This document shows, in pieces, positions 5,772 to 31,107 of a stretch of 31,107 nucleotides of DNA. Source of the stretch: a virus. The position numbers were made by a program, and so were the translations under genes. The notes beneath the pieces are model-generated. The model was not told where the DNA came from, ran no database searches, and saw nothing but the letters and a program-made list of their open reading frames with translations. Location: IMG/VR virus record IMGVR_UViG_3300028805_000028. One strand, written 5' to 3'. The number at the start of each line of letters is the position of its first letter. Positions within the stretch are counted from its first letter, which is position 1.

Positions 5772-5971
5772 CCTTTGTCGCTCCCTTCTCGCGGAACTTC
5801 GATGTGCGCCGTCTCCATGACGGTGCGGATCTTGCGCAGCATAGTCGCGCTGCAAATATAACGGATTTCGCCGGTGCGGAAAGCATCTTGCAGCTCCTCG
5901 ACGGTCGTGATAAAATTTCGGCTCAGCTTGGCGACTGCCGCAGAGCCGATTGCTAACTTCGTGATCTCCAT
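5768..5971 (-). CDS. Hypothetical protein (67 aa from MEITK)
   Basis: GGAGG 8 nt upstream of the second ATG. Confidence 0.5.
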   Translation of the reverse strand: MEITKLAIGSAAVAKLSRNFITTVEELQDAFRTGEIRYICSATMLRKIRTVMETAHIEVPREGSDKG

Positions 5972-6037
5972 TGACTTTTCCTCCATTTTGTGCTATACTG
6001 GAGATAGCAATACTTCTTTCTGGACTTCCTTCTTGTG

Positions 6038-8842: not shown

Positions 8843-9061
8843 TTACTGGCTGGCCTTCGGCGGCTCATCCCCCGCAAGCTGCTCGACCGTCATGCCAAGC
8901 ACCTTTGCGAGCCGGAGCGCGATCTCGATTTTGGGAGTCGCTTCGCCACGCTCATAAAGCCAGATAGTCGTCTGTGTGACGCCGATTTTCTTGGCTAATT
9001 CTTCCTGAGACATCAGGAGTTGCAGTCGTCTGTTTCTGAGGTTGTCGCGAAAGTTCCCCAT
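8843..9061 (-). CDS. Cro/XRE-family HTH regulator (72 aa)
   Basis: LLMSQEELAKKIGVTQTTIWLYERGEATP. Divergent from the repressor gene. It is the first gene of the minus-strand early operon. Confidence 0.88.
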   Translation of the reverse strand: MGNFRDNLRNRRLQLLMSQEELAKKIGVTQTTIWLYERGEATPKIEIALRLAKVLGMTVEQLAGDEPPKASQ

Positions 9062-9099: not shown

Positions 9100-9128
9100 T
9101 TGACATTCTGTGCAAAATATGCTATAAT
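9100..9128 (+). promoter_or_regulatory. Consensus sigma-70 promoter toward the repressor gene (TTGACA-17-TATAAT with TGc extended -10)
   Basis: ttgaca 9100..9105, 17-nt spacer, tataat 9123..9128. Confidence 0.75.
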
Positions 9129-9216: not shown

Positions 9217-9245
9217 ATTATACTACAAGAAAACTAGAATGTCAA
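9217..9245 (-). promoter_or_regulatory. Consensus sigma-70 promoter toward the cro-like gene (TTGACA-17-TATAAT)
   Basis: Reverse complement of 9240..9245 is TTGACA and of 9217..9222 is TATAAT, with a 17-nt spacer. Confidence 0.75.
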
Positions 9246-9344
9246 GAGAAATTTTCAAGTTTTCTTGGATTTCGGCGGAACTTCCATTTTTCAACAGCGA
9301 ATTTTATAGAAAACTAATAGTTTTTGGAGGGAGGTCTGATTTTT

Positions 9345-9962
9345 GTGTTTTACGATGTGTTAAAGGCTCTTTGTGACGAAAAAGGCACGACACCTAACGC
9401 TGTATGTCTTCAGCTCGGATTTTCTCACGCGACAGCGTCATACTGGCGAAAATCAGGCGGCACGCCGAAGAGAGAAGCCCTTGAGAAATTCGCAGAGTTT
9501 TTCGGCGTATCCGTTGACTATCTGCTCGGCCGGCAGGAGCCGCCGAACGCGGAGCTGATGCCGGCCGGCAAGGTGCGCATGATACCGGTCTTTGAGAGCG
9601 TTTCCGCCGGTTTCGGAGCCGATGCGCAGAACCGGATCATCGACTACAGACCGACCGTGATCGAGTCCGATGCCGAGGCCGCCGAGACGATCTTCGTGCG
9701 CGTCTGCGGCGACTCCATGCATCCGCAGATCCAGGACGGCGACCTTGTGCAGGTGCACAAGCAGGAGACCGCCGAGACCGGTGACATCGTGGTCGTGCTC
9801 GACGGCACCGAGGCGTTTGTCAAGCGCTTTATCCACGGCAAAAACGGCGTCGTGCTGGAAAGCGCGAATCCCGCATACCCGCCGCGGAAGTACAGCCGCG
9901 AAGAGTCGAACGAGCTGCGGATCGTCGGCGTCGTGCGGTACATCGTCCGGAAGTGCGAGTGA
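9345..9962 (+). CDS. CI/LexA-type repressor: XRE HTH plus S24 autopeptidase
   Basis: N-terminal HTH (TPNAVCLQLGFSHATASYWRKSGG). S24 motifs CGDSMHP (Ser) and FVKRF (Lys). GTG 9345 is preceded by GGAGGGAGG. Confidence 0.9.
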   Translation: MFYDVLKALCDEKGTTPNAVCLQLGFSHATASYWRKSGGTPKREALEKFAEFFGVSVDYLLGRQEPPNAELMPAGKVRMIPVFESVSAGFGADAQNRIIDYRPTVIESDAEAAETIFVRVCGDSMHPQIQDGDLVQVHKQETAETGDIVVVLDGTEAFVKRFIHGKNGVVLESANPAYPPRKYSREESNELRIVGVVRYIVRKCE

Positions 9963-10726
9963 TGCGCCGGAAGCTGCACGCGCTGATCAGCTCCGGCTGG
10001 TACAGCGCCGGCATGGTGGTCTGCATCGTCGTGAGCATCGTGCCGCTCGCCTTCCGATCCGAGCCGGCTGCGTTTCGCGTGACCGAGGCGATCTGCACCG
10101 CCGTCTTTGTTTTTGACTATGTCGCGCGCTGGATCACCGCAGACCTCGACGATTCGGGCAGATATCCGTTTGCGCGGTATCCGTTCCGGCCGATGGCCGT
10201 GATCGACCTGGTCTCTATCCTGCCCTCGGTGACGGCGCTCGGCAGCGGTTTCCGGCTTTTTAAGGTTTTCCGGCTTGCGCGGTCGCTCCGGATTCTGCGG
10301 ACGCTGCGCGTGTTCCGGACGCTGAAGCTCGCACGGTACTCCCGCAGCATACAGATGATCGGCAGCGTCTTCCGGGAGCAGCGCGAGTCCCTGCTGACGG
10401 TGCTGATGCTGGCATTTGCTTATATACTGATCTCTGCGCTTGTCGTATACAATGTCGAGCCGGAGACCTTCGCGGATTTCTTCGAGGCGGTCTACTGGGC
10501 GACCGTCTCCCTCACTACTATGGGGTACGGCGATATCTACCCGGTGACAACGGTCGGGCGGCTTGTGACGATGCTGTCCTCGCTGCTCGGCATCGCGGTC
10601 GTCGCACTCCCCGCCGGCATCGTGACAGCCGGCTATATGGACGAGTTGAAAAAGGAGCGTGAAGAAAATGGCAAGAAAGACCCCGTTCTGGCGCCGCCAG
10701 AGACCGACGACGCGCGCAAAGCGTAA
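9962..10726 (+). CDS. Voltage-gated K+ channel homolog (6-TM Kv type, 254 aa)
   Basis: S4-like FRLFKVFRLARSLRILRTLRVFRTLKLARYSR with R/K at every third residue. Acidic residues in S2/S3 (FDYVARW, AVIDLVS). Pore helix plus filter YWATVSLTTMGYGD. The ATG overlaps the repressor TGA (TGATG). Confidence 0.9.
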   Translation: MRRKLHALISSGWYSAGMVVCIVVSIVPLAFRSEPAAFRVTEAICTAVFVFDYVARWITADLDDSGRYPFARYPFRPMAVIDLVSILPSVTALGSGFRLFKVFRLARSLRILRTLRVFRTLKLARYSRSIQMIGSVFREQRESLLTVLMLAFAYILISALVVYNVEPETFADFFEAVYWATVSLTTMGYGDIYPVTTVGRLVTMLSSLLGIAVVALPAGIVTAGYMDELKKEREENGKKDPVLAPPETDDARKA

Positions 10727-10865
10727 GATCGCAAAGATTACCGGCATCCCGACCACGCGGAGCGGCCGCAAAGCAAAGGTGCGCCGGTTGCTGCTGCCCG
10801 GCTGCGCGCTGCCCCTCGCTCTGATCGCGGCAGCGGCATCGGTCGCTGCGGCGATCATCCGCTAA
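10668..10865 (+). CDS. Small very basic protein with C-terminal hydrophobic helix (65 aa), tentative
   Basis: AAGGAG 10 nt before the ATG. Sequence MARKTPFWRRQRPTTRAKRKIAKITGIPTTRSGRKAKVRRLLLPGCALPLALIAAAASVAAAIIR. It overlaps the channel 3' end by 59 nt and fills the gap before int. Arg-rich alternative-frame ORFs are common in GC-rich DNA. Confidence 0.4.
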   Translation: MARKTPFWRRQRPTTRAKRKIAKITGIPTTRSGRKAKVRRLLLPGCALPLALIAAAASVAAAIIR

Positions 10866-10900: not shown

Positions 10901-11953
10901 ATGGCAAAAGCAAAGAAACTGCCGTCCGGCAGCTGGCGCGTCCTACAGTTTGTCGGTCTGGATGCCGACGGCAAGCGGCAGTATAAAAGCTTTACTGCTC
11001 CGACAAAGCGCGAGGCAGAATTTCTCGCGGCGGAGTTTGTCGCAAAGAAAAAGCGCCCCGCCGGGCGGATGACCGTCGGCGAGGCGATTGACAGATACAT
11101 CGAGAGCAAAGACGGCGTGCTGTCGCCGACGACCGTCTCCGGATACCGGAAGATCCGGCGGAACTACTTGCCCCAGCTCATGCCGGTGCAGCTCGACCGC
11201 CTGACCGAGGAAGAAGTGCAGCGCGCTGTGAACGATGACGCAAAGCGGCTAAGCGCAAAAACCGTGATTTCCGCCCACGGGCTCTTGACTGCGACGCTGC
11301 GGATGTTTGTGCCGGATCTCATCCTGCACACTCGGCTGCCGCGGAAAATCAAACCGCTGCGGCGCGATCTTCCGAGCAGCGAGGATGTGATGCGCGCCAT
11401 GCTCGGCGATGCGGCCGAGCTGCCGGTGCTCTTGGCTCTGTGCCTGTGCCTCCGGATGAGCGAGGTGCGCGGGATCCGGAAAAGTGCTGTCCGCGGAGAT
11501 ACGCTCGCGATTGAGCGCGTGATCGTCACGGCAGACGGCGAGCACATCGAAAAAGAGCTTGCGAAGACGGACGCGACGCGGCGCATCGAGCAGCTCCCGC
11601 CGTTTCTGCGCGATCTGATCCTCGCAGCGCCGACCGAGTATGCGACCACGCTGACCGGGCAGGCAATCTACAAGCGCTTTACGCGGCGCATGGCTGCGGC
11701 AGGCTTTCCGGGTGTGCGCTTCCACGATCTGCGGCACATATCGGCATCGGATATGCACGCGCAGGGCATCACGGACCGTGTCGCAGCGGAGCGCGGCGGT
11801 TGGTCCGGGACGCAGACGATGCGCGATGTGTATCAGCACAGCTTCGGCAGTGATCGCCAGCTCGCCGACCGTAAAATGATCGACTACTACAGCCAGATCC
11901 GGCGCGATGCAACACAAGATGCAACACAGAGTGCTGAAAATGCCGCAGAATAG
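10901..11953 (+). CDS. int: Tyrosine integrase with arm-binding-type N-terminus
   Basis: N-terminus LPSGSWRVLQFVGLDADGKRQYKSF. Catalytic motifs CLRMSEVRG, RFHDLRHISAS, GGWSG..MRDVYQH. Confidence 0.93.
   Translation: MAKAKKLPSGSWRVLQFVGLDADGKRQYKSFTAPTKREAEFLAAEFVAKKKRPAGRMTVGEAIDRYIESKDGVLSPTTVSGYRKIRRNYLPQLMPVQLDRLTEEEVQRAVNDDAKRLSAKTVISAHGLLTATLRMFVPDLILHTRLPRKIKPLRRDLPSSEDVMRAMLGDAAELPVLLALCLCLRMSEVRGIRKSAVRGDTLAIERVIVTADGEHIEKELAKTDATRRIEQLPPFLRDLILAAPTEYATTLTGQAIYKRFTRRMAAAGFPGVRFHDLRHISASDMHAQGITDRVAAERGGWSGTQTMRDVYQHSFGSDRQLADRKMIDYYSQIRRDATQDATQSAENAAE
11906..11928 (+). repeat. Tandem GATGCAACACA x2 (12-bp period), left arm-type site candidate
   Basis: Copies at 11906..11916 and 11918..11928, inside the int 3' end (encodes DATQDATQ). 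Confidence 0.6.
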
Positions 11954-11960
11954 CGGCACG

Positions 11961-11989
11961 GCGCGGGGTTCAATTCCCCTCGCCTCCAT
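11961..11989 (+). other. attP core candidate resembling the 3' end of a tRNA gene (T-arm plus acceptor strand)
   Basis: gcgcGGGGTTCAATTCCCCtcgcctcca lies 8 nt after the int stop. Only a 3' fragment is present, with no full cloverleaf. Confidence 0.6.
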
Positions 11990-11996
11990 AATCCAC

Positions 11997-12044
11997 AAAC
12001 CGCGCATTTATGCACTTTTCGCATAGATGCGCGGTTTTTCTTTG
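11997..12044 (+). terminator. Intrinsic terminator after int
   Basis: aaaccgcgcat-N19-atgcgcggttt followed by ttctttgttt. Confidence 0.7.
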
Positions 12045-12146: not shown

Positions 12147-12232
12147 TTCTACAAACTCAATATTTATGCAATCATACAAAGTTTGAGTTTCTACAAACTT
12201 TTTGCCGTTTTGCTATTGACGTTCTACAAACT
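12147..12232 (+). repeat. Three direct copies of TTCTACAAACT
   Basis: Copies at 12147..12157, 12189..12199 and 12222..12232. The third lies in the promoter spacer. Confidence 0.8.
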
Positions 12233-12244
12233 CTATGCTATAAT
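12216..12244 (+). promoter_or_regulatory. Near-consensus sigma-70 promoter (TTGACG-17-TGcTATAAT) for the moron cassette
   Basis: ttgacg 12216..12221, 17-nt spacer, tataat 12239..12244. Confidence 0.7.
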
Positions 12245-12306
12245 ATAATCAAGGAAAGGGAAGGAAAACCCAAAGGAAACCCAAGAGAACTAACGGAGGT
12301 ATGAAA

Positions 12307-12609
12307 ATGGAACGGTATGAAGCACTGATGACTATGGACGACACTGTCGCGTACTCTATGATTGATCGTGATGGCGAAGAGATGTGGAAGGCCATCGAAG
12401 CCTTGAAAACGATGATGAACGATGCAGAGCCTGAAGACTATGAAACCGCATCGGAAGAGGACTGGACACGGTTTAACGCACTGGGAAAGGCTGTCGCACT
12501 CATGTACAAGGAGTATGAAAGCGCTGCAAAGTCTTACTGCGAAGAAGTCCGGAAAAGCGAAGGCTTCCGCGAGTATGCCGAAGCGCACAAGAATCTGTGG
12601 CTGAGCTGA
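12307..12609 (+). CDS. Acidic hypothetical protein (100 aa from second ATG)
   Basis: GGAGG 12295..12299 is 7 nt from ATG 12307. Confidence 0.6.
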   Translation: MERYEALMTMDDTVAYSMIDRDGEEMWKAIEALKTMMNDAEPEDYETASEEDWTRFNALGKAVALMYKEYESAAKSYCEEVRKSEGFREYAEAHKNLWLS

Positions 12610-12659
12610 TACAAAATGCCGAGCCGGGCGGCAAATCCCGGCAGAAAGTGGGGCTTAAC

Positions 12660-13094
12660 ATGAAAAAGATCATCAAAGGCAAGCTGTACGATACAGCGAC
12701 CGCAAAGCGTCTCGGTGAGTATGAGCCGAGCCCGTACACCTCAGATTTCCACTGGTACTGCGAAACGCTGTACCAGAAGAAGACCGGCGAATATTTCCTG
12801 TACGGCAAAGGGAATGCCGCATCGAAGTACAGCCGGAGCTGCGGACAGAACGAGTGGTGCGGCAGCGAGCAGATCCAGCCGCTGACATACGCCGAGGCGC
12901 AGTCGTGGGCGGAGGAGCATCTCGACGGCGAGGACTACTGCGAGATCTTCGGCGAGCCGGACGAGGACAGCGAAGATGTCGCGCTGAATCTGATGATCAG
13001 CGCCGCAGCATCCGCGAAGCTGAAGAAGTCAGCCGCACAGAACGGCATCTCGCTCCGTGCTCAGATCGAACGCTGGATCGCGGAGGGTAAGTGA
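12660..13094 (+). CDS. Hypothetical protein with C-terminal ribbon-helix-helix-like domain (144 aa)
   Basis: N-terminus MKKIIKGKLYDTATAKRLGEYEP...GEYFLYGKG; acidic linker EPDEDSEDV; then VALNLMISAAASAKLKKSAAQNGISLRAQIERWIAEG, which fits a strand-helix-helix pattern. Confidence 0.65.
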   Translation: MKKIIKGKLYDTATAKRLGEYEPSPYTSDFHWYCETLYQKKTGEYFLYGKGNAASKYSRSCGQNEWCGSEQIQPLTYAEAQSWAEEHLDGEDYCEIFGEPDEDSEDVALNLMISAAASAKLKKSAAQNGISLRAQIERWIAEGK

Positions 13095-13096
13095 TA

Positions 13097-13133
13097 ACAA
13101 AACCGGCAGAGCAAACGCCTTGCCGGTTTTTGT
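13097..13133. terminator. Bidirectional intrinsic terminator between convergent genes
   Basis: acaaaaccggca-N12-tgccggtttttgt with an A-tract before and a T-tract after. It overlaps the endolysin stop codon. Confidence 0.8.
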
Positions 13134-13855
13134 TATTTTTCGAGCTCCGCCCGTGTTGCCGGGCCGCAGATGCCGTCCACGGCAAGCCCGTGCTCAACCT
13201 GAAAAGCGAGCAGCGCGCCGAGCGTAAATGTGCCGAAAATGCCGTCGATCTGTCCCGCCGGCAGATATCCCTTGCGCGTAAGCGCCGTCTGGAGCCAGAC
13301 AACCTGCTCGCCGGTGTCTCCCTTGCGGATCAGCGGCTCAGGCTCCGGCGCAGGCTGCGGCGTGTCCGGCTGATGCACAAATCCGATAAACCGGTAATCG
13401 CTGCCCGCACCCCAGTTCCCGCCGCCTTTTTCGCGGTGAGATGTCCAGAACGGATTCGCGCAGCCGTAGCCGGATTCCGATGTGATGATGCTGCCGTCGC
13501 CGTTGATCTTTTCGACGACCGCGACATGACCTGCACCGTCTCCTATTGTCCATGTTTTTCCCTTCGCCCAAACGATGATCGCGCCGAGCTGCGGCTCCGT
13601 GCCGGTCTTGAGTCCCTGCGCCTTTGCGACATCGACGAAATTCTCCGCATCCGGCGGATATGTCAAGTACTTCCAGCAGCCGGCGCCTATGATCTCGTTG
13701 AATCGTCCGGCTGCGTAGCCGACGCAGTTTGCGAGGATATCCGTGCCGGCCTGGAGCGGGTAGCCCTTGATCGCGCCGACAGCATAGCCGCCGCTCGCAG
13801 GGGTGTTGTAATACTTGTTTCCGCTTTCAGGCTTTGTGAGGCGTGGCTTAAACAT
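13133..13855 (-). CDS. Endolysin: CHAP/NlpC-P60-type catalytic domain plus PG_binding_1 domain
   Basis: ANCVGYAAGRF (Cys) and GAGHVAVVE (His). C-terminus GDTGEQVVWLQTALTRKGYL..DGIFGTFTLGALLAFQVEHGLAVDGICGPAT. AGGAG 8 nt before ATG 13855. Confidence 0.88.
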   Translation of the reverse strand: MFKPRLTKPESGNKYYNTPASGGYAVGAIKGYPLQAGTDILANCVGYAAGRFNEIIGAGCWKYLTYPPDAENFVDVAKAQGLKTGTEPQLGAIIVWAKGKTWTIGDGAGHVAVVEKINGDGSIITSESGYGCANPFWTSHREKGGGNWGAGSDYRFIGFVHQPDTPQPAPEPEPLIRKGDTGEQVVWLQTALTRKGYLPAGQIDGIFGTFTLGALLAFQVEHGLAVDGICGPATRAELEK

Positions 13856-13869
13856 TTCAGAATCTCCTT

Positions 13870-15039
13870 TCATTTTCGATACATAATTGTCATTTCGCTC
13901 GGCTGCAAATCAGTCTCCACCGTCAAAGTGTTCTGCCCCTTTACTGTCGGAATCGTGACGCCTGCATCCGCGCTGTGCAGCTCGTCGGCATAATCGCCGA
14001 TTTTGCACAGCGGTTCGTTGACGATTGCGGTTTCGGGTTCTGCGAGGACGTACCAGACTGTGACGGGAGTTCCGGCGGCGTATTGGGCGGCAAGGTATTC
14101 TTTCAGACCTGCAACGGTGTTTCCGCTCGGTTGTGCATTCATTACATCTAAACCAAAGTTAAAGTATATTACATCATAAGATATAGCAACATTGATGCCA
14201 ACTTCTGTCGAAGGGGTGTGATTTAGATTTTGTAAATGAGTGCAGCACAGAGGAGAGCGGCTAATGGGTGCAGATGATAATGCTGTAAATCTAATATAAT
14301 ATAGCGAATTATCAGCAGAAGTGACGTTTTTTCTGTAAAAGTCTGTTTCTTCCTCACCCGTCAGCACCAACTTCTTCACTCTCCGCACCGTCTGCGTCTG
14401 ACCGAGATACACGGGCGTTGTCTGTCCGGCGCAGGTGATCGGGATTTTGTAGCCGTATGGTTCATACGGGGAAGCGGTGCTGCCGAGGTTGAGCATGATG
14501 TTTGTGTATCCTGCATCCGCCCACGTATTGCCCTGTGTTCCGGATGTGCGGATGATCTGATCAGACACGCCGTCTGCCGTAAACGTATACGGTAAAGAGC
14601 TGATTGCTTCAAACGTGTTCGTGCTGCCGTTTTTGATCGTTCTATAAATCGGCGTTGCGGACGCAGCAGAAACAGCATTAAACGTGTATGTTCCTTGCGG
14701 CAAAACGCCGAGATTTGTGCCTTTTCTTTGCGCCGACGCAGATATCGGAACAAGCTCATATACGGCTGAATCAAACAAATTCCCAGTCCTCACGCCGCAG
14801 AAAGTCGGCTGAATCGGCGCGTCAGGTGTAGGCGTGCCCTGCTGCTCCCCGTTGCCTTTCATGCTCCACGAAATCAGCGGCTTGCCGTTGCTCTTGAAAC
14901 TCAGCGGCGGGATTCCGGTCAGCGTCTTACCCGCGCCGCCCATGAGCGTGCTTGCCCTCATGCGGTCGTAGTAGGTCATGCCGGGGCTTGCAATGCCCGT
15001 TGCGGCGAATTTCAGCAGACTATAAAAGTTAGCGCTCAT
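13870..15039 (-). CDS. Tail fiber / receptor-binding protein candidate (389 aa)
   Basis: Position at the distal end of the tail module. Gly/Thr-rich beta-type sequence. Contains an internal low-GC patch. Confidence 0.6.
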   Translation of the reverse strand: MSANFYSLLKFAATGIASPGMTYYDRMRASTLMGGAGKTLTGIPPLSFKSNGKPLISWSMKGNGEQQGTPTPDAPIQPTFCGVRTGNLFDSAVYELVPISASAQRKGTNLGVLPQGTYTFNAVSAASATPIYRTIKNGSTNTFEAISSLPYTFTADGVSDQIIRTSGTQGNTWADAGYTNIMLNLGSTASPYEPYGYKIPITCAGQTTPVYLGQTQTVRRVKKLVLTGEEETDFYRKNVTSADNSLYYIRFTALSSAPISRSPLCCTHLQNLNHTPSTEVGINVAISYDVIYFNFGLDVMNAQPSGNTVAGLKEYLAAQYAAGTPVTVWYVLAEPETAIVNEPLCKIGDYADELHSADAGVTIPTVKGQNTLTVETDLQPSEMTIMYRK

Positions 15040-30968: not shown

Positions 30969-31107
30969 TTATCGGCGGGACCCGTTATGACCACGATCAG
31001 GGGGGGCATCCTCGCCGATGACGAGCTCGCCGTTGATGATTCTATAGCGCTTTGGCGCTCCCTTTCCGTAGTGGAGCTTGTTGTGGCACTCAATGCATAC
31101 AGCTTCG
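30969..31107 (-). CDS. HNH endonuclease 3' end (duplicated part plus last codons ...GHNGSRR and TAA at 30971..30969)
   Basis: The reading frame from 1..327 continues through 30980..30969 to a TAA. Confidence 0.85.
   Translation of the reverse strand, partial: EAVCIECHNKLHYGKGAPKRYRIINGELVIGEDAPPDRGHNGSRR
30981..31107. repeat. Terminal overlap, exact copy of 1..127
   Basis: Compared base by base: cccgttatgaccacgatcagggggggcatc...caatgcatacagcttcg is present at both ends. It lies inside a coding region (HNH). Confidence 0.97.

Follow-up and report, generated by a model that had tools for sequence, protein, structure and literature searches.

A voltage-gated K+ channel homolog between the repressor and integrase genes of a temperate phage, and its recurrence in phages of the gut and rumen

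The viral genome recorded in IMG/VR as IMGVR_UViG_3300028805_000028 (31,107 nucleotides (nt), referred to in its whole length as the window) carries, directly behind a CI/LexA-type repressor gene and ahead of a tyrosine integrase gene, an open reading frame (ORF) for a Kv-type K+ channel, followed by an overlapping ORF for a small basic membrane protein. Comparative analysis indicates that the repressor-channel(-recombinase) layout is recurrent in many unrelated phages of the gut and rumen. The channel protein as such belongs to a known family and is unremarkable within it; the novelty lies in the recurrent position of a voltage-sensor K+ channel gene immediately after phage repressors, together with a small co-travelling membrane protein. 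From its genomic setting, the channel probably benefits the lysogen, and anti-phage exclusion or abortive defence is the leading guess for its function, a speculative one to which we give somewhat less than an even chance. The two genes are as follows:

10726 is the last position of the first gene, 9962-10726, + strand: Kv-type K+ channel with six helices, 254 amino acids (aa), assigned from the Ion_trans profile, structure matches, an AlphaFold2 model and the ratio of nonsynonymous to synonymous substitution rates (dN/dS).
10668-10865, + strand: tail-anchored basic protein, 65 aa, with the motif KRKIAKxTGIPTTRSGRKAK, PGC and a C-terminal helix; its first 59 nt lie within the 3' end of the channel gene, in a different reading frame.

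Every sequence hallmark of a working Kv channel is present in the predicted protein, and its similarity to the family is far beyond chance. Pfam Ion_trans matches it with 107.8 bits (E 6.7e-31, cutoff 25) over residues 13-227, the whole transmembrane core, and Ion_trans_2 with 57.1 bits (E 1.7e-15, cutoff 22.5). The fourth transmembrane segment, S4 (RLFKVFRLARSLRILRTLRVFRTLKLARYSR), occupies residues 98-128 and bears 11 arginines or lysines (R/K) at strict 3-residue spacing; together with the S4-S5 segment it can be aligned to Kv2.1, as can the K+ selectivity filter (TTMGYGD, residues 185-191) to its counterpart there. Counter-charges are provided by F49-x-x-D52 in S2, by D61 and by D82 in S3. 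Residues F49, D52, D61 and D82 are invariant among 26 homologs, and F49, D52 and D82 form the charge-transfer centre. The protein stops about 27 residues beyond S6, where a cytoplasmic regulatory domain is absent; an alternative GTG start lies at 9953.

The solved structures nearest by sequence are Kv2.1 (2e-27), KCNQ2, KCNQ5, Kv1.3, Kv1.2 and Shaker (~1e-18). The AlphaFold2 model shows six helices and a pore helix at a mean predicted local distance difference test (pLDDT) score of 75.7, and the Foldseek top 50 for this model are all Kv channels with probability 1.0. Their template-modelling (TM) scores are only ~0.3, which is attributed to the placement of the voltage-sensor domain relative to the pore domain in the monomer model; the fold assignment is therefore drawn mainly from sequence. 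The initial annotation, made from the letters alone, had described a complete voltage-gated K+ channel homolog with six hydrophobic segments, a periodic 11-charge S4, acidic counter-charges in S2 and S3, a TTMGYGD filter and no regulatory domain. All of this is borne out, and two of the checks it proposed, profile search and structure prediction, both point to a channel.

The features that might look unusual belong to the family as a whole. Among 134 sequences, the filter TT[VM]GYGD is intact in every one and the median number of periodic S4 charges is 9, with 11 reached in 16. With six-helix Kv channels (Kv2.1, KCNQ, Kv1.x, Shaker) the phage protein shares S1-S6, the basic S4, the charge-transfer residues, the pore helix, the TTxGYGD filter and the S6 glycine hinge, along with full-length sequence and fold matches. 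It differs from them in its minimal length of 254 aa without T1, C-linker, RCK or CNBD, in its location in a phage immunity operon, and in the 9-11 periodic charges over S4 and the S4-S5 linker that are a trait of its family. It is not of the Kcv type (pore-only, two-helix, ~80-125 aa), since it has a full S1-S4 voltage-sensor domain. The model for archaeal MVP-type hyperpolarisation-activated K+ channels (NCBIfam NF040645) gives a partial match of 51.8 bits against a cutoff of 300, and the protein thus falls outside that equivalog.

The channel gene is tied closely to the repressor gene. The repressor TGA (9960-9962) and the channel ATG (9962-9964) overlap by one base in the sequence TGATG, through which the two genes are, on this reading, translationally coupled. 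The surrounding elements are the following:

9324-9962, + strand: CI/LexA-type repressor with a helix-turn-helix (HTH) domain (HTH_3, 2.3e-05) and Peptidase_S24 (1.3e-26); PHROG 4 transcriptional repressor, 4.9e-40.
10901-11953, + strand: tyrosine integrase, int (Pfam Phage_integrase, 2.5e-07; PHROG 1 integrase, 5.6e-40).
9100-9128, + strand: sigma-70-type promoter of the lysogenic operon, TTGACA-17-TATAAT with extended TG, 12/12 consensus; its function is inferred.
11997-12037, + strand: intrinsic terminator, a 17-bp stem followed by a T-run; the first strong + strand terminator downstream of the repressor promoter.
8843-9061, - strand: Cro-like HTH gene (Pfam HTH_3, 1.2e-15), first of the divergent (lytic/early) operon; equally placed in the surveyed loci L001, L002 and L004.
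9217-9245, - strand: sigma-70-type promoter towards cro, 12/12 consensus, overlapped by inverted repeats I3 and I4.

Downstream of the 9100-9128 promoter, the search found no other promoter-like site on the + strand up to 12056, and no terminator from the repressor promoter up to the end of int. Because an internal promoter is lacking and the terminator comes only after int, the repressor, channel, small ORF and int are read as one operon. Expression of the channel in the lysogen from the repressor-maintenance promoter is a reasonable inference, since the channel has neither its own promoter nor a terminator before the end of int, and it is strengthened by the many phages that share the layout. 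The same-strand position of int behind the channel and the Rex-like position of the channel, directly behind a CI/LexA-type repressor as rexAB, had both been proposed in the initial annotation, as had the shared base of TGATG, and all three hold.

The promoters at 9100-9128 (+) and 9245-9217 (-) face each other, with a predicted transcript overlap of ~75 nt, and repeated AGAAAACT/AGTTTTCT half-sites around both of them are candidate operator half-sites. A face-to-face promoter layout is known from the genetic switch of coliphage 186. The repressor may start at a GTG at 9345, the choice of the gene callers in L001.

Comparison with relatives indicates that the channel and the 65-aa ORF form a two-gene cargo cassette of ~920 nt, which extends exactly from the repressor stop to the ribosome-binding site (RBS) of the integrase gene. 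In the related phage L175, whose repressor is 50% identical and whose integrase is similar, the repressor stop is followed by 13 nt and the int ATG, with the int RBS kept; the two genes are therefore an insertion of ~920 nt. As expected of moron cargo, the insertion is discrete and missing in relatives, namely L175 and 14 phages with related integrases. A classical moron has its own promoter and terminator; no such sites flank this cassette, which relies on the repressor promoter. In the 14 channel-less phages (integrases 35-74% identical) the same slot holds other cargo, including lipoproteins, a TM2-domain protein, DEDDh exonucleases that match the PADLOC candidate PDC-S48, an ImmA-type protease and a DnaJ-domain membrane protein. 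The cassette-bearing phage type was independently assembled in L001, L002 and L004, and in L154 the cassette stands behind a different repressor with an extra 161-aa gene. One phage group has AbiD (PADLOC 4e-33; Pfam Abi_2) directly behind the channel. In L011-L021, which are IMG/VR human-associated phages, the repressor, Kv channel, AbiD and a serine recombinase lie on one strand, with AbiD ~160 nt downstream of the channel.

The search for channel homologs yielded 6899 in the protein database and at least 563 confirmed matching stretches in species-representative genomes, nearly all from Clostridia/Bacillota by record titles. From the latter, 80 loci were kept and the context was evaluated for 79; in IMG/VR, 65 loci with a channel homolog of 40-95% identity were collected, of which 59 were evaluable. 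A same-strand HTH repressor ends within 400 nt upstream of the channel in 40 of these 59 loci, and a tyrosine integrase lies within 2.5 kb downstream in 23, counts that overstate the number of independent cases as several of the surveyed phages are near-identical. By Pfam, the upstream neighbours include HTH_3 (35/58) and Peptidase_S24 (14/58), and the downstream ones Phage_integrase (19/49), serine recombinase (7/49) and Abi_2 (7/49). When serine recombinases are counted, a lysogeny-module context is found in 47 of 59 IMG/VR loci versus 12 of 79 loci from species-representative genomes.

Phage-context and chromosomal (Clostridia) copies are interleaved in a neighbor-joining tree of 134 distinct channels. 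Fitch parsimony on this tree gives at least 26 context switches, a figure that depends on a topology without support values and on imperfect context calls. The survey for a channel gene between repressor and integrase, another check proposed at the outset, thus found the layout not only in IMG/VR loci but also in two named phages. In Dulem virus 33 (PP511792), an XRE repressor is followed by an "Ion transport protein" with a 4-nt overlap and, further on, by an integrase. In Lactobacillus phage PLE2 (NC_031036), from L. casei BL23, the repressor gp29 is followed by the metalloprotease gp28, the ion transporter gp27 and, at a greater distance, the integrase gp24; six helices and a TTVGYGD filter are present in gp27. 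These Kv-type homologs are 57% and 30% identical, respectively, to the channel of the window and are annotated by domain name only. PLE2 differs in an extra tail on gp27 and in the ImmA-type protease between gp27 and the repressor. The tail of the PLE2 channel (L156 3333-4112), ..IKKLYDLKQIGAITQSEYDAKKRQLL, is SHOCT-like by eye only; an architecture of ion-transport and SHOCT domains is mentioned in PMC3581485. Two contigs of one metagenome-assembled genome (uncultured Clostridiales RUG006), L072 and L075, each contain a repressor-channel-integrase module, and one host may harbour two channel-bearing prophages.

Pairwise dN/dS for the channel is 0.12-0.19 (0.17-0.19 among phage copies), and for the small ORF 0.06-0.35 (0.145 at a dS of 1.4 versus L154). 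Judged by these ratios, both cassette genes are real and under purifying selection.

Several lines of reasoning favour exclusion as the function of the channel. The slot that it occupies carries Abi (abortive-infection) and exclusion-type cargo; ion-channel effectors are an established theme of prophage defence, as in RexAB, Sbash and Hailong; phage DNA entry perturbs the membrane potential; and depolarisation linked to Kcv blocks a second chlorovirus. RexAB of lambda and gp30/31 of Sbash are the subject of ion-channel models of prophage defence (PMC6426596), and the Hailong effector contains an IRK K+-channel domain (PMC13586616). In chloroviruses, the depolarisation and loss of K+ that are linked to Kcv are reported to prevent infection by a second virus (PMC7019647). 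Ionic fluxes and depolarisation accompany phage DNA entry (PMC13407855).

In the proposed mechanism, the channel would be made in the lysogen from the repressor-maintenance promoter, inserted into the membrane as a presumed tetramer and kept closed at resting potential. When a superinfecting phage injects its DNA, the resulting ion leak and depolarisation would move S4 and open the pore. K+ efflux would then clamp the membrane near the K+ equilibrium potential, cytoplasmic K+ and turgor would fall, and DNA entry or the early development of the invader would be stalled. Since the pore is K+-selective, the effect would perhaps be reversible and non-lethal. The channel would thus be a single-protein exclusion or abortive-infection device, RexB-like in action and unrelated to RexB, with the small protein as a co-travelling membrane protein. 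The more specific version, in which the voltage sensor itself is the infection sensor, reversible K+ efflux blocks the invader without killing the cell and the 65-aa protein is an auxiliary subunit, is doubtful.

Known systems resemble this arrangement in part. Lambda RexA/RexB, Sbash gp30/gp31 and the CarolAnn system (PMC6426596) likewise place a membrane protein gene just behind the repressor (cI), with which it is expressed from the prophage, and their proposed action against other phages through an ion channel and the membrane potential is the analogy drawn here. RexB and gp31, however, are four-helix proteins that depend on a cytoplasmic sensor (RexA, or gp30 with DUF4747), whereas the phage channel combines a voltage sensor and a K+-selective filter in a single protein; sequence and fold relation to the Rex systems is absent, and no PADLOC or Pfam match to Rex proteins was found among the operon genes. 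The slot and the logic of lysogen expression are shared with the superinfection-exclusion and abortive-infection genes that temperate phages of Firmicutes carry between integrase and repressor (Sie2009 and Ltp types, PMC3952083; AbiD/AbiF). These encode small injection-blocking membrane proteins or lipoproteins, or cytoplasmic Abi proteins, and unlike the present case they include no ion-selective channel. The K+ channels of algal viruses, chlorovirus Kcv among them (PMC7019647), are also virus-encoded, but Kcv is a two-helix pore of ~94 aa without a voltage sensor, located in the virion membrane of a eukaryotic virus and active at entry, with no lysogeny involved.

A number of points weigh against exclusion. 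The neighbours of chromosomal channel homologs are heterogeneous and mostly housekeeping genes, with no defence islands, and such neighbourhoods therefore suggest a general physiological role that the phage merely imported. The phage channel has no added sensor domain, and its low dN/dS gives no sign of arms-race diversification. PHROG 7872, which it matches, is labelled "unknown function", and PADLOC-DB 2.0 gave no match for the channel or the 65-aa ORF at E up to 0.1. The redundancy among surveyed phages also reduces the weight of their recurrence. On biophysical grounds, a RexB-like collapse of the potential is questionable, because a K+-selective pore drives the membrane to the K+ equilibrium potential; by our own reasoning, such a pore cannot collapse the proton-motive force as a non-selective one does, and the K+-rich fluid of gut and rumen would leave a small driving force for efflux. 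Finally, gating polarity cannot be read from the sequence, and if the channel were hyperpolarisation-activated (MVP-like), it would be a path of K+ uptake.

The main rival is lysogenic conversion, in which an ordinary host K+ channel has been imported and is expressed with the repressor, altering K+ homeostasis, osmotic response, potential buffering or electrical signalling. The benefit would be to the fitness of the host, and hence of the prophage, in the K+-rich, fluctuating fluid of gut and rumen, independently of other phages. This explanation is possible, if rather less than probable. It agrees with the predominance of Clostridia/Bacillota among the at least 563 matching stretches, with the varied housekeeping neighbours of most of the 80 loci, with the unaltered architecture of the phage channel and with purifying selection like that on a housekeeping gene. 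It also has a precedent in TrkG, a K+ transporter of host type that E. coli carries in its rac cryptic prophage (PMC9898762); TrkG belongs to the Trk/Ktr/HKT family rather than to Kv and is encoded outside the immunity operon. Foreign genes such as that of TrkG are usually silenced or repressed by H-NS (PMC9898762). On the other hand, lysogenic conversion leaves unexplained the repeated capture of the channel into a slot for Abi, exclusion-type and membrane cargo, and since hosts commonly own such a channel already, the marginal gain from another copy is doubtful.

The closest non-phage copy, L003, bears on the direction of transfer. Its channel is 88% identical to that of the phage and lies among adhE, oxaloacetate decarboxylase, rluB-like and NUDIX genes, a setting that would suit an imported host gene. 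DNA homology between the window and L003, however, runs from ~30 nt before the channel ATG to the small-ORF stop. In the window, these ~30 nt encode the repressor tail ..RYIVRKCE, homologous to the tail of L175 (..KRIIRDV) and to those of other S24 repressors; in L003, a remnant of the repressor 3' end (..HIVRKCG, 5970-6001) followed by TGATG precedes the channel. Because this 3' end is retained and the tail is native to S24 repressors, the chromosomal gene pair of L003 probably descends from a phage copy rather than the reverse, which counts against lysogenic conversion for at least this one chromosomal copy. The idea that the shared ~30 nt are a coupling adapter borne by the cassette was ruled out, as the L154 cassette lacks them and the tail is native to S24 repressors. 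The flanking genes of L003 were also used to look for chromosomal surroundings conserved around the channel, and there are none.

The role of the 65-aa protein is a separate question. The initial annotation had suggested that it could be a gating partner, and a dedicated channel subunit (KCNE/beta-like, or a tethered basic "ball" peptide) that tunes gating, so that the pair is a functional unit, would be its fullest form. That the ORF is a real gene is supported by its dN/dS. In favour of a subunit, it overlaps the channel 3' end and has its own RBS, AAGGAG 10 nt upstream of its ATG; it would be 68 aa long if started from the GTG at 10659. The first 42 residues, in which 16 R/K are counted rather than the 19 given earlier, form a basic segment that is predicted to be cytoplasmic and tethered by one helix. 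The ORF accompanies the channel in L001-L004 and L154, and thereby moves with it across repressors (L154) and into a chromosome (L003). Relatives occur in 12 of 148 surveyed loci, L001-L004 (the clade of the window) and 8 others, and are channel-adjacent in all 12, upstream or downstream by lineage.

Against a dedicated subunit, 136 of the 148 channel loci have no such neighbour, and the same small protein (P0135) occurs in a phage lysogeny module that lacks a channel, after an unrelated 236-aa protein. This 236-aa protein, which precedes the small ORF in L149-L153, was considered as a divergent channel and found not to be one. The small-protein family has 16 close members and 282 cluster representatives, in which the basic motif is followed by PGC or GGC and then by one helix; no Pfam, PHROG, PADLOC or NCBIfam model matched the small ORF. 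Motif and helix also form the N-terminal anchor of larger proteins with dockerin, PLD-like (PLDc_2) or Cu_amine_oxidN1 domains, which points to a general membrane-anchor or targeting module. What stands of the gating-partner proposal is a real gene adjacent to the channel; a channel-specific function fits poorly with its occurrence elsewhere, and a dedicated subunit is unlikely. The better reading of the small protein is a basic module of general use in membrane anchoring, frequently found in company with the channel, and the motif with its helix may be an undescribed N-terminal membrane-anchor or targeting signal. In P0139-P0208, (F)SWKRALGIT..KRKIAKATGIPTTKSGRKxK, GGC or PGC and a helix make up the N-terminus of many Clostridial proteins.

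A role in the phage life cycle, be it at establishment, in preventing premature holin triggering or in coupling the host energy state to lysis-lysogeny or induction, is improbable. The channel is predicted to be co-transcribed with the repressor and integrase, both of which act at establishment. Since holins are triggered by depolarisation, a K+ conductance that repolarises the membrane could shift the time of lysis. Chlorovirus Kcv offers a further parallel in that it acts during entry (PMC7019647). The cassette is nevertheless dispensable, being missing in L175 and the 14 phages with related integrases; the channel lies on the strand opposite to the lytic genes, and nothing connects it with the lysis cassette at 13133-13873.

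It is very improbable that the cassette has no function in the phage, as a passenger that is neutral or in decay or as an artefact, through host DNA taken up by aberrant excision or through chimeric assembly: although the cassette adjoins int and attP, where imprecise excision adds host DNA, and an 88% identical chromosomal copy exists, it is internal, between repressor and int rather than beyond attP, the genome is circularly closed, the same arrangement is found in four independent assemblies and in many unrelated phages, and the functional residues are all intact at a dN/dS of 0.17-0.19 among phage copies.

Among temperate phages of Firmicutes in gut and rumen, an intact channel has come to occupy, time and again, a slot for genes of benefit to the lysogen, which implies a strong, recurrent selective advantage. 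If the function is anti-phage, the channel would bring to prophage immunity a new kind of effector and sensor, in which the sensing of voltage is combined with K+ selectivity; if it is physiological, lysogenic conversion would be altering membrane electrophysiology widely among gut bacteria. To our knowledge, the role of voltage-gated K+ channels in bacteria is largely an open question, and a voltage sensor that acts as infection sensor, if true, would be the first clear physiological role for the prokaryotic ones. Among open-access papers and preprints, where absence is no proof, no paper was found on Kv-type channels in prophage immunity regions, and no functional study of the channels of Dulem virus 33, PLE2 or PHROG 7872. 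One homolog belongs to a prophage, PLE2, that is inducible, and its host strain, L. casei BL23, can be cultured and is genetically tractable.

The genome as a whole is that of a complete temperate siphovirus-like phage of ~31 kb. Its ends are identical over 127 nt (1-127 = 30981-31107), which shows that the window closes into a circle and holds the complete phage genome (~30,980 bp), not a piece of a prophage. The minus strand encodes terminase, portal, tape measure protein and endolysin, and no link of the lysis cassette to the channel was seen. A Megablast search of GenBank phages with the lysogeny module found no match. One further feature lies directly after the int stop:

11956-11990, + strand: candidate attP core resembling a tRNA 3' end (GCACGGCGCGGGGTTCAATTCCCCTCGCCTCCA), with a GGGG-TTCAATT-CCCC T-arm and the acceptor 3' strand.

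The phage probably uses this segment as its attP core when it integrates into a tRNA gene; the tRNA-like character was not confirmed by ARAGORN, which found no complete tRNA, or by Rfam, which gave no significant hit. If it is the attP core, the prophage operon of repressor, channel and int would read across attR, with the terminator at 11997-12037 behind the rebuilt tRNA gene.

Two other regions of the genome deserve mention. A second, shorter tyrosine-recombinase-like ORF (1979-2782, - strand, 267 aa; PHROG 1 integrase, 2.6e-29) is located a long way from int, in the early/replication region. Between attP and the endolysin gene, a near-consensus promoter (12216-12244, + strand, TTGACG-17-TATAAT with TG) stands upstream of two overlapping + strand ORFs without a family match, 12301-12609 (102 aa) and 12597-13094 (165 aa), and this two-ORF unit (12216-13094) is a possible second moron.

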